A stretch of DNA of 64,000 nucleotides from a bacterium (GTDB lineage Bacteria > UBA8248): the NCBI GenBank assembly GCA_965200245.1, contig CBDATS010000005.1, forward strand, positions 224,001 to 288,000. Reading direction: 5' to 3'. The translations under genes were made by a program, and so were the position numbers. Shown here piece after piece: positions 58,430 through 62,956 of the stretch. Within the stretch, counting starts at the first letter, position 1; each line of letters opens with the position of its first letter. Below the pieces are notes generated by a model. It worked only from the letters and a program-made list of their open reading frames with translations, was not told the DNA's origin and searched no databases.

Positions 58430-59713
58430 TTGTCTGACGCAAAAAAGTGCTTGTCCAGATTGATGCTACTATACACCTTGTTCGCAGCTGGGTTGTTACT
58501 TTCCGGCTGCGCCGACTCCCTTCACCCCAAGGTAAAACCAAGTTCCGTCAAAATCCTGAAAAACGCCATTGAGGTGGAGTTCAACGAACTGACCCGTGAA
58601 TTCGACCTAATCGACCAAAAAGGCGACTTGGCCCTTTGCGCTCCCCTGCACTTCGGGGTAGCGCGTTTCGCCGTCTATCAGGCAGTGGAGGAAAAAAGAA
58701 CTGCCACCATGGCACAATTGACCCGCTTCATCATCAGGGCACGAGCGGCTATCAAGCGGGCGGAAGAGAAGATGAAAAAAAATCAGTGCGTCGACCAGGA
58801 CGGTGACGGACTTACCGATCTTGTGGAAAACCACAAATACAATACCCAGCCGGATAACGCCGACACCGATGGAGATGAGGTTTCCGACACCCTAGAAATC
58901 CGCCGGTACCGAACCAACCCGCTCAAGGCCGATACGGATGGCGACCTGCTTGACGATGGAGACGAAATATCACGCGGCTTGAATCCGCTGCTCACTGATA
59001 GCGACGGGGACGGATATATCGACGGCATCGAGATCGCTCAAGGTTCGAACGCACGCGATGCATGTTCACAGCCACTAGATGCACAAAATCTAGACCGACT
59101 GCACGAATGCAGACCGAAACGAATTCATGCCAAACCCGTCCAAGCCAAGACACCACAAGAACGAACTCCAGTGACCACACTCAAGACGAAACAAATCTCG
59201 GACAAAAAGAGATTGCACAAGGCCGAAAAACCGAAAACGAAGCCTGCTTCCTCGTCATCCCCTAAAAGGCACCGAAAGCCCGAAAAAGTGAAGTTCGAGG
59301 ACAGAAAGCTGAAACCTTCTATCACCAGCAACGGGGCATATCCGGGGCAAAAAAATCAGGTGCCGCGAACCCTCCAAGAAAATACCACCACTTCTTCTGA
59401 CAATGCGGCACCAGCCAGTTCCGACCTCCATCATGCCAACGTGAATCACAATGAGATACTCATCCCCATACGGCCGAAAGCGAATCAACACGAAACGTCA
59501 AAAACAAATCTCGAGGAAAAACCAGGCAAGGCAAACCGCGAAGAACCTCAGGTTCACGCGCCTCTCACCGTTTCTCTCGCAGAGAACCACGAAAAACCGG
59601 AAAAACCCGCCGAAGCATCTTCCGTACCCCAATTTCCGAAGCCTGCCCTAAAAAAGAGATTTCCTCCTTCAAACGAGAAATTCCCCTCCGCGATTTTCAT
59701 GAGGTTGTGGTAG
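58430..59713 (+). CDS. Lipoprotein with four DxDGD calcium-binding (thrombospondin type 3-like) repeats and disordered tail
   Basis: Lipobox LLSG-C; DQDGDG, DTDGDE, DTDGDL, DSDGDG; K/P/S/E-rich C-terminus. Confidence 0.7.
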
Positions 59714-59862: not shown

Positions 59863-61554
59863 ATGACGGAGCAGAAAACAGCCCTGAACCGATTCAGCTG
59901 CCGTATCACCCAGCCGCCCTCACAGGCTGCCTCTCAGGCCATGCTCTACGGTGCGGGGCTGGATGAAATCGACATGAAAAACCCACAGGTCGGCATCGCC
60001 AGCATGTGGTGGGAGGGAAATTCCTGCAACTTTCACCTAAACCGGCTTGCCGAATACATCAAGCAAAGTGTGAATGACGAAAAAAAAATGGTCGGCCTCA
60101 TTTTCAACACTATCGGCGTAAGCGACGGTATCTCCATGGGCACGGAAGGCATGAGATACTCCCTCCAGTCGCGAGACCTCATCGCCGATTCAATTGAGAC
60201 CGTCGTCGGCGCGCAGTGGTACGACGCCTTGGTCACCCTCCCGGGATGTGACAAGAACATGCCCGGTTCCATTATGGCAATGGCGCGACTCGACCGACCC
60301 AGCCTCATGGTATATGGCGGCACTATCAGTCCGGGATTCCTTAACGGAGAGAAGCTGGACGTAGTTTCCGCTTTCCAGGCTTATGGAGAGTACTTTTCCG
60401 AAAAAATCGATGAAGAGCGCTTCCAGTCGATCATCCGGCACGCCTGCCCGAGCGGGGGCGCATGCGGTGGCATGTATACGGCGAACACGATGTCCTCATC
60501 CATTGAAACGCTTGGAATGAGCCTACCCTACAGCTCGTCAAATCCCGCCATGAGCGATGACAAGAAAAACGAGTGCCACGACGTGGGAAAAGCCATTTAT
60601 CATCTGCTTGAGAACGACATCAAGCCCAGCGACATCATGACGAAACAAGCGTTCGAGAACGCGATCACCATCATTATGGCACTCGGCGGTTCTACGAACG
60701 CCGTGCTTCACTATATCGCGATCGCCAAAGCGGTTGGAGTCGAACTCACTATCAACGACTTTCAGGAAATCAGTGACAGAACGCCTTACATTGCGGACTT
60801 AAAACCCAGCGGGAAATTCGTCATGGAAGATCTCCACGACGTTGGCGGCGTGCCTGCCGTTCAAAAACTTCTCCTGAAAGAAGGTCTGCTCCACGGCGAT
60901 TGCCTCACCGTCACAGGCAAAACGCTCGGCGAAAACATCGAAGCCTTGCCCGACCTCCATGCGGACCAGAAAATCATCGTGCCACTTTCCTCCCCCATCA
61001 AGAAAACGGGGCACCTCCAGATTCTCTACGGAAACCTTGCGAGCGAGGGTGCCGTCGCCAAAATTACGGGAAAAGAGGGAGAGCGATTCGAGGGTCCTGC
61101 ACGCTGTTTTGATTCCGAGGAAGACGCCCTGAAAGGCCTGGAAGAGAAGAAGGTGAAAAAAGGTGACGTCGTCATCATCCGTTACGAAGGCCCTAAGGGC
61201 GGCCCGGGGATGCGGGAGATGCTCACGGTTACCTCCGCGATCATGGGAGCTGGTCTTGGAAACGACCTCGCCCTCATCACGGACGGCAGGTTTTCGGGCG
61301 GCACGCACGGCTTCGTCGTCGGGCACGTCACGCCCGAAGCCCAAAGCGGCGGTCTTCTCGCACTTGTCGAAGACGGCGACACAGTTCTGATCGACGCCCA
61401 AAATCGCGTTATGGAACTCAAGATACCCGAGGAGGAGATTGAGAGACGGCGTATGGCCTGGAGTGCACCCCCGCTGAAATTCACGAAAGGCACGCTCTAT
61501 AAATACGCCAAATGCGTATCTTCAGCTTCTGAAGGATGCGTGACAGACGAATAG
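59863..61554 (+). CDS. ilvD: Dihydroxy-acid dehydratase
   Basis: [44 protein letters not shown]. Confidence 0.96.
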
Positions 61555-61624
61555 AAGCAGGACAAAAGAACAGGAGAGAGGAGAGCAAACGACTCCCCTC
61601 TTCATTTGTAACCAATTTACTCGC

Positions 61625-62089
61625 CTATGTTGCGCCGGTTTTCCTTTTACGGTTGGCGTATTCCTTGAAATACCCTGCGATAAAGGAGTTCTCTCAGTCG
61701 AAATCGACGTCGCGCGCCTTTTGCAATACTTCGTCTCCGCCCAAGTCTTCTTCTTCGGCTAGATGAATCAACGAGCAAATCCCGGCTCGCCTCACGCCTT
61801 TTCAATGAACGTACACCAGACCGTCTTTTCTGGCCTTGTGAAGTGTTTGGTGGATTTCCGTCGACAATTCTTCGTTTATGCTATCGGCATTCACGGGGAT
61901 ATGCACGAAATTCATACCCAGTTCACACGCCGCTTTTCTCTCCGCATCGAGTGGCAGTTCCAACTCTTCTTCATCAGCCGAACGAACATTCACAACAAAT
62001 TTTATCCCTTTGTCCGCCAGAATCTTCATATCTGTTTTGCCAGGCTGACTTCCAAACACGAGATTTTCAGCCAACTCGAAATAACCCAT
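61625..62089 (-). CDS. DUF442/Blh phosphatase-like sulfurtransferase with two putative selenocysteines (U96, U132)
   Basis: SQP, VVNVR, FVHIPV, VYVH-TGA(61802-61804)-KGVRRAG...DFD-TGA(61694-61696)-ENSFIAGYFKEY...TAG(61625); 154 aa. Confidence 0.8.
61662..61687 (-). promoter_or_regulatory. Putative SECIS hairpin for the second UGA
   Basis: TCCTT/AAGGA lower stem, TATC/GGTA upper stem, GCAG loop starting at nt 16 after the UGA. Confidence 0.45.
61772..61789 (-). promoter_or_regulatory. Putative SECIS hairpin for the first UGA
   Basis: CGAGC-CGGGATTT-GCTCG, extendable by G-U pairs; loop starts at nt 18 after the UGA. Confidence 0.6.
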
Positions 62090-62113
62090 TCGATTTCTCC
62101 CGTATATTTGTTT

Positions 62114-62956
62114 TCAAACTCGTTGCACCAGTTCTCGACAACGAAGCAGGCAGGTCACCTTTTGCTCTTCCCCGTCACGCTTGTAAATCCCAAGCAGATT
62201 ATTAATCATTCTCTCCACAATGCGGCGGGGTGGTGTTTCCTGTAAAAACCGCATATCGAAATGATATCCGAGCCCCCGTACAATCGTCGCACAATCCTCT
62301 ACGTTCAAGCGTTTTCCTCTCTCGAAGGGATCTAAAAATATAGGGTCCCCTTCACCTTGATATTTGACGATGAAATGTCCCGGCATCCCGACTCCATGAA
62401 AAGGGAGTTTCAGCCGTCTGCCAAGAATCAAATATAAAGCAGAAAGCGATATGGGAATGCCCCGTCTCCGCTCCAGAACGCAATTCATGAAGCTATTCTG
62501 CGCAGCATAATAACTATCACGAGCTCCATCGAAGCGAAGCTCTCCGTGCAAGTATTCCACGACTTCATCGACGATGGCGTCCGCCCGGTTCATGCCCTCC
62601 AAACGTTCAAGCAAATGATTTTCCATGCCAAGCAGTTCGTCTTTATTCAACCTCAAGTCTTCGAGTGGATGGCCGAAGGACGCCAACAAGAAGCACGCGT
62701 CTTCCAGGTTCGCATCTTCTACCGAGGAAAGTGACCAGTCCGCAAAAGCGATTTCGATTTGATTGTAATGGAATTGCAGCAGCGACGGAGGAAGAATCAC
62801 CTCGTTCGCCTCACTTCTCTTCATCATGCAAAGAAGTCTTCTCTGCTCGTCAGTCGAGAATCCGGAAACCTGTCGGTCCAAAACCGTCGTTACATCTGGT
62901 GAACCGTCACTCAACAAATGACAGATGGCCTCTAATTGCGAGTCACTCAAAGACAA
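62114..62956 (-). CDS. SirB1 / transglutaminase-like superfamily protein
   Basis: YYAAQNSF, VLERRRGIPISLS, GVGMPGHF, LDPFERG, RMINNL. Confidence 0.88.
   Translation of the reverse strand: MSLSDSQLEAICHLLSDGSPDVTTVLDRQVSGFSTDEQRRLLCMMKRSEANEVILPPSLLQFHYNQIEIAFADWSLSSVEDANLEDACFLLASFGHPLEDLRLNKDELLGMENHLLERLEGMNRADAIVDEVVEYLHGELRFDGARDSYYAAQNSFMNCVLERRRGIPISLSALYLILGRRLKLPFHGVGMPGHFIVKYQGEGDPIFLDPFERGKRLNVEDCATIVRGLGYHFDMRFLQETPPRRIVERMINNLLGIYKRDGEEQKVTCLLRCRELVQRV

Follow-up and report, generated by a model that had tools for sequence, protein, structure and literature searches.

A UGA codon at the catalytic position of a DUF442/TIGR01244-type protein from a UBA8248 bacterium is well supported as encoding selenocysteine, and a second in-frame UGA is most likely a lineage-specific nonsense change

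The window analysed here, a stretch of 64,000 nucleotides from contig CBDATS010000005.1 of a UBA8248 bacterium, contains a DUF442/TIGR01244-type gene that is crossed by two in-frame UGA codons. The question raised by this locus is whether both of them encode selenocysteine (Sec), as a preliminary description of the window had proposed, or whether each has to be explained in its own way. By translation, the gene (61625..62089, minus strand) comprises 154 codons from an ATG at 62089-62087 to a TAG stop at 61627-61625 (minus strand), with TGA at codon 96 (61802..61804, minus strand) and again at codon 132 (61694..61696, minus strand). This is the frame that had been put forward, and our translation reproduces the peptides quoted for it; the open reading frame obtained with translation table 11 ends, as had also been reported, after ...VYVH, at 95 aa. 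A Shine-Dalgarno-like GGGAG, recognized by eye in the sequence, lies at 62097..62101 (minus strand), 7 nt 5' of the ATG. Codon 96 occupies the catalytic Cys position of an H-[C/U]-x4-R loop, codon 132 occupies a position that is an invariant Trp (TGG) in the clade, and codons 133-154 (61628..61693, minus strand), which correspond to a C-terminal helix region, continue in frame to the ancestral TAG, with a tail that aligns with those of the orthologues.

Upstream of this gene lies a SirB1-like (Transglut_core2) gene (62114..62956, minus strand; PF13369 in Pfam, E 1.6e-39), and the 24 nt said to separate the two are indeed found after its TGA stop (62116-62114). On its other side, the gene under study is convergent with ilvD. 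Among loci L025-L053, the SirB1-like gene stands 5' of the Sec-DUF442 gene in 28 of 29 cases, as opposed to 0 of the 10 paralogue loci, and it is a conserved partner of the Sec-DUF442 gene. The pair formed by both genes, convergent on ilvD, is kept across genera. Elsewhere in the window, the list of open reading frames includes one of 427 aa at 58430-59713 (plus strand), with a lipoprotein-like N-terminus and a low-complexity basic Pro/Lys tail, in which D-x-D-G-D motifs of a thrombospondin type 3 or calcium-binding-like kind are repeated.

The assignment of the protein to the DUF442 family was addressed with profile searches in which Cys was written for Sec. The score against PF04273 (BLH_phosphatase/DUF442) is 28.3 bits, above the cut-off of 26.1, and the cut-offs of the related Pfam families PF22741 and PF22785 are also passed. 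The NCBIfam matches to TIGR01244 (45.2 versus a cut-off of 85.85) and to NF040641 (Blh; 63.2 versus 625) both remain below cut-off and span residues 6-134/135. An AlphaFold model with a mean pLDDT of 91.5, for which a 31-sequence alignment served as input, predicts a strand at residues 91-96 followed by a helix at 100-113, which is the layout of a PTP-like active-site loop, here H-U-x4-R, and a further helix at 138-152, with pLDDT values of about 90 up to residue 150. The top matches of this fold in the PDB are the DUF442 structures 2f46 and 3gxh (Foldseek E 2.5e-8 and 5.9e-8; TM 0.73-0.80), dual-specificity and tyrosine phosphatases come next, and 2f46 is the sole PDB match by sequence (E 0.0028). 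In this regard, the gene product would be a small cytoplasmic enzyme with the PTP-like DUF442/TIGR01244 fold, carrying Sec in place of the catalytic Cys of the H-C-x4-R loop.

The proposal that the first UGA sits at the catalytic Cys of this loop is borne out by the homologues. When 1.84 billion representatives were searched, 593 matches reached E <= 0.001. The columns were counted in the best 150 of these 593, of which 132 have Cys at column 96, 143 have His at column 95 and 141 have Arg at column 101. P0024, which at 42% identity is the nearest of the full-length Cys forms, reads H-C-K at the UGA96 site. At the codon level, all 59 related Nitrospinaceae-type loci carry TGA at column 96, comprising 30 of 30 loci of the first set, 10 of 10 paralogues and 19 of 19 loci from metagenomes, some of the last being duplicates of genome loci. 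The metagenome loci were recovered by a scan with the alignment as query, and several of them are the very contigs of genome loci (L067 = L047, L069 = L062) and hence non-independent; the metagenome scan with the single protein as query returned no relatives.

Past UGA96, residues R101, A102, G103, C105, S106, L107 and H109 are invariant in the 31-sequence alignment. When 51 genomes of the phylum were searched in six frames, 35 of them had matches, among these all 22 other members of the genus. In each genome of the genus, the top match continues across the TGA to about residue 150, with the exception of a weak 96-residue fragment (G024). Of the 22 homologues in the protein database, 20 are exactly 95 aa long, i.e., cut at UGA96, and one entry of this 95-aa type is labelled Nitrospinae bacterium. 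As these database entries end at 95 aa, the proteins as currently annotated lack the active site and half of their length.

Each of the two UGA codons had been described as followed by its own hairpin, with a loop starting 16-18 nt downstream. This is the case for UGA96, where the loop begins after 17 nt, and not for UGA132, where a loop of only 4 nt starts 26 nt downstream of the codon. The RNAalifold consensus of 40 sequences predicts a SECIS hairpin at 61770..61791 (minus strand) with a 7-bp stem (61791-61785 / 61776-61770) that begins 10 nt after UGA96 and occupies columns 14-20 and 29-35 as counted from the UGA, and with a G-rich loop of 8 nt between them, CGGGAUUU (61784-61777, minus strand). 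Four of the seven pairs are invariant in 40 of 40 sequences and the other three vary on one side (A-U/G-U), so that none is broken anywhere; the window copy alone has G-U for G-C at one pair. Since compensatory double changes occur at none of the seven pairs in these 40 sequences, the support for the SECIS element comes from conservation and not from covariation. In this regard, Ala102, Gly103, Cys105 and Ser106 are each encoded by a single codon in 40 of 40 sequences, as is Gly100 in the 36 of 36 that have Gly, and at the other invariant four-fold sites 3-5 codons are in use, the commonest of them at a frequency of ~0.45-0.55. The synonymous divergence is 0.385 (dS) for codons 97-131 versus 0.958 for codons 1-95. 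The folding energy of the hairpin by itself is unexceptional (z -0.72), with 179 of 500 random in-frame TGG codons being at least as stable in this respect, and no Rfam family, SECIS or otherwise, was identified in a scan of 61550-62150, whose sole match was a chance snoRNA (E 9.8). Following established bacterial Sec decoding, SelB with Sec-tRNA(Sec) would bind the hairpin at 61791-61770 and insert Sec at UGA96, and the same arrangement of UGA96 and hairpin is present in each related locus examined.

The genome was also searched for the Sec machinery, as the preliminary description had suggested, and tRNA-Sec, SelA, SelB and SelD are all found in it, with scores that exceed the curated cut-offs. 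The tRNA-Sec reaches 75.9 bits versus a cut-off of 47 and is called by ARAGORN too, as SeC(TCA); the genes for SelA and SelB share a contig, with that of SelB lying ~1 kb downstream, and SelD itself contains an in-frame TGA. In this genome TGA is the commonest stop codon, ending 855 of the 1791 ORFs of >=300 codons; a UCA anticodon is confined to tRNA-Sec, and a single tRNA-Trp(CCA) is encoded. A genome-wide reassignment of UGA to Trp is therefore ruled out, given the long ORFs that TGA ends and the lack of an extra UCA tRNA. Two odd calls by ARAGORN were recorded along with these tRNAs. One is a 91-nt 'tRNA-Pyl(CTA)' (G000:C8:91646-91736; L083:1247-1337), which coincides in part with the 3' end of a 373-aa ORF, is matched by no tRNA family of Rfam at E <= 1 and is probably a false positive; the other is a 93-nt call of an undetermined tRNA (G000:C4:1003962-1004054). 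Taken together, the comparisons made at this codon and in its surroundings offer good support for UGA96 as a genuine Sec codon at the catalytic site, decoded by the standard bacterial mechanism.

Two paralogous Sec-DUF442 copies are present in most genomes of the genus. In the genome studied here, the paralogue is intact, with Sec and Trp at the two positions, and is located at G000:C5:487841-488296 (L054:1501-1956). An OsmC-like gene (L054:1047-1481, plus strand) lies ~20 nt upstream of this paralogue and has an in-frame TGA in the context G-F-U-L-L-T, which is the UxxT motif of a known OsmC-like selenoprotein family. On account of this in-frame TGA, locus L054 would hold two selenoprotein genes in tandem.

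Codon 132 presents a different picture. In every related locus that reaches this site the codon is TGG, namely in 29 of 29 orthologue-type, 10 of 10 paralogue and 17 of 17 metagenome loci, and because these 56 close relatives all have Trp, the ancestral codon is taken to be TGG. A 'second TGA' that the genome search flagged in other homologues turned out to be the terminal stop of those genes. The claim that both UGA codons encode Sec is thus upheld for UGA96, which is aligned with Cys and is TGA in 59 of 59 clade loci, and is not supported at UGA132, where 56 of 56 relatives have Trp. The same division emerges from the pairing of Cys with UGA that had been proposed as a check: it is found at column 96 (Cys in 132 of the best 150 of 593 homologues) and not at column 132, where Cys occurs in 31 of those 150 and TGG in all 56 close relatives.

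Across the wider family, column 132 is Cys in 31, Leu in 26 and Trp in 10 of the best 150 of 593 homologues, with other residues in the remainder, and Cys is found in 17 of the best 30. The C-terminal G-F-[DE]-C motif named in the preliminary description is therefore real, and it belongs to distant Cys-type homologues, those with Cys at this column. Column 132 switches repeatedly between Cys, Trp, Leu and other residues, and where it is Cys it represents a second conserved cysteine of the wider family; a chalcogen at this column is chemically meaningful there, judging from the 31 Cys among the best 150. Codon 105 (61775..61777, minus strand) encodes a Cys that never varies within the Sec clade, that is shared by P0024, the nearest Cys-type relative of this clade, and that occurs in only 4 of the best 150 homologues of the wider family. 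Having Trp132 together with Cys105, the Sec clade and P0024 may have relocated the second redox thiol, and Cys105 is a possible resolving residue in view of its invariance.

The condition of the window copy was compared with that of its orthologues. At sites that are invariant in the genus, the window copy has six private changes (R18K, T31F, P47L, D73E, W132stop and S136F), the most of all, versus 0-4 in 20 other orthologues. Its divergence relative to the SirB1-like and neighbouring genes gives a ratio of 1.53 within a range of 1.07-2.00 (17 loci; L028 and L042-L044 excluded), and the lineage of the window copy appears simply to be long. The whole-gene dN/dS of 0.144 falls within the 0.119-0.196 of the orthologues (21 loci), and the gene is therefore not an old pseudogene. 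For the tail, dN/dS is 0.37 in window pairs versus 0.23 in other pairs, values that come from 19 codons in 18 loci (L042-L044 excluded). The tail after UGA132 is still open and in frame. From the in-range divergence and dN/dS it follows that the nonsense change is either recent or tolerated.

Further readings of UGA132 have to be weighed against such a nonsense change. In the one closest to the preliminary description, U96 and U132 would form a catalytic/resolving pair that mirrors C96 and the Cys of G-F-E-C in distant homologues. The frequency of Cys at column 132 in the wider family (31 of 150, and 17 of the 30 best, among the best 150 of 593) speaks for this pair, together with the 22 further open codons to the ancestral TAG, the normal whole-gene dN/dS and a hairpin with a G in its loop that falls inside 16-37 nt, the usual distance from UGA to apical loop in bacterial SECIS elements. 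This hairpin (61656..61675, minus strand), however, is AU-rich and weak (-3.6 kcal/mol folded alone), and its loop, CAAG, has no G in the first two positions. It is built from the codons of G-Y-F-K-E-Y, its sequence is near-identical in the TGG-bearing orthologues L025 and L026, and it is a by-product of the coding sequence. Neither is its stability above chance, as 420 of 500 random in-frame TGG codons (84%) have an equal or stabler hairpin in the same position range, and 60% of 4000 random in-frame TGG sites fold equally well or better over +4..+55. Across the orthologue loci, the nucleotides after codon 132 show no conservation of sequence or structure and vary like ordinary coding sequence, and the residue itself is Trp, not Cys, in each of the 56 close relatives whose sequence extends this far. 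At 21%, the TGA/Cys proportion likewise falls short of the >50% rule used in PMC1088965. With TGG as the codon of the clade, no conserved structure and a hairpin held in common with L025 and L026, the double-Sec idea and the diselenide pair that it implied are left unsupported, and we consider them very improbable. Little credence can be given, too, to UGA132 being a newly born Sec site of this single lineage, which would use the fortuitous weak hairpin and rebuild the two-Cys layout.

UGA is also known to be the leakiest stop codon of bacteria, and the near-cognate tRNA-Trp(CCA), of which this genome has one, might read UGA132 as Trp at a meaningful rate, making the TGA a down-tuning allele. 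TGG>TGA is the sole nonsense change whose read-through product is the ancestor, and the intact tail and the normal whole-gene dN/dS would fit with this scenario; on the other side stand the role of TGA as the main stop of the genome, the lack of a dedicated UGA-reading tRNA apart from tRNA-Sec, the lack of an evident read-through signal and the somewhat higher dN/dS of the tail (0.37 versus 0.23, 19 codons). Since Sec insertion and read-through multiply, the yield would moreover be low, and we regard a meaningful rate of read-through as unlikely. The TGA could finally have arisen as an error of assembly or sequencing, or could belong to a minority allele in a population whose main allele is TGG. 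The assembly consists of 15 contigs with an estimated contamination of 8.11%, the sole run covering the site (X1) may be the source of the assembly, and the organism is absent from the raw reads of X9. Yet a Logan contig of run X1 (24 kb, depth 14.8), which was built independently, is identical over 61500-62200 (701 bases), TGA132 included, and the TGA is therefore not a random read error, with the proviso that X1 may be the assembly source. Five runs, furthermore, contain at least half of the sampled words, and the runs of two studies (P1 and P2) at least 98%. Coverage is limited to 61859-62200 in run X6 and to the end of ilvD in the RNA run, X7. An artefact or minority allele seems hardly probable.

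UGA132 is most likely a nonsense substitution (TGG>TGA) specific to this lineage, at the site of a conserved Trp, and the combination of Sec at codon 96 with a private nonsense change at codon 132 is, with fairly high confidence, our best explanation of the gene as a whole. According to this explanation, the otherwise invariant TGG would have turned into TGA in the copy of this genome alone. As no SECIS element follows UGA132 and UGA is a normal stop in this genome, release factor would end most chains at residue 131, with the loss of Trp132 and of the C-terminal helix; the helix that the model places at 138-152 would be removed by a stop at 132. A small fraction of chains in which tRNA-Trp reads through the codon would restore the ancestral protein.

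As for the novelty of the family, PF04273, TIGR01244, DUF442 and a phosphatase-like fold are absent from all 119 rows of Table 1 of PMC13188914, a 2026 review that presents 119 prokaryotic selenoprotein families with their domain accessions. The impression that this family is not among the described bacterial selenoproteins is thereby confirmed for that catalogue. The NCBIfam scan found no selenoprotein-specific model, its only matches being NF040641 and TIGR01244, and a search of full-text literature found no report that joins DUF442, PF04273 or TIGR01244 with selenoprotein or selenocysteine. Sec-DUF442 is thus apparently an uncatalogued selenoprotein family, one that might nevertheless be listed in BSepDB or in supplementary lists. 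The BSepDB paper was the sole full-text match for Nitrospin* with selenoprotein, and its Table 2 gives 48-54 selenoprotein genes for three MAGs labelled Nitrospinota, Nitrospinaceae and Nitrospinae (GTDB UBA8248), which places Nitrospinota among the bacteria richest in selenoprotein genes.

With Sec-DUF442, the catalogue would gain a family in which a sulfurtransferase fold of the PTP-like type carries Sec. Its SECIS is unusually rigid, most genomes of the genus have two paralogues of it, and a SirB1-like gene is its conserved partner. Our findings also call for caution: even where distant homologues have Cys at the aligned column, an in-frame UGA of a genuine selenoprotein gene can be no more than an ordinary nonsense change.

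With respect to known systems, the DUF442 domain of Blh acts as a thiosulfate sulfurtransferase that moves sulfane sulfur to cyanide or GSH, according to passages of PMC5823870. By analogy with this domain, the protein of the window would probably carry sulfane sulfur, or selenium, on its selenolate. The DUF442 domain of Blh from Xylella fastidiosa and Agrobacterium tumefaciens has the fold and the H-C-x4-R loop in common with the window protein, and the stand-alone size of ~150 aa is shared with the DUF442 sulfur-transferase domain. Unlike Blh, the window protein has Sec for the catalytic Cys and no fusion to a persulfide dioxygenase, and the partner of its gene is SirB1-like, in contrast to the bigR operon in which Blh is encoded.

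The two DUF442 proteins of determined structure, NMA1982 (PDB 2f46) and that of Shewanella putrefaciens (3gxh), are 18-24% identical to the window protein and have Cys where it has Sec; at the column of residue 132, 2f46 has Leu in the phmmer alignment. The G-F-E-C Cys-type homologues (P0026, P0027, P0030 and P0029, the last being fused to rhodanese domains) are 33-38% identical over the whole domain and have the catalytic Cys at column 96, but combine Cys132 with a hydrophobic residue at 105, whereas the Sec clade and P0024 combine Trp132 with Cys105. Finally, the rhodanese-type selenoproteins (PF00581 forms 1-5 in Table 1 of PMC13188914), also bacterial and SECIS-dependent, have Sec at the catalytic Cys of a sulfurtransferase-type loop, as is the case here; the rhodanese fold, however, is unrelated to the PTP-like fold of the window protein, which has no Pfam match to PF00581.
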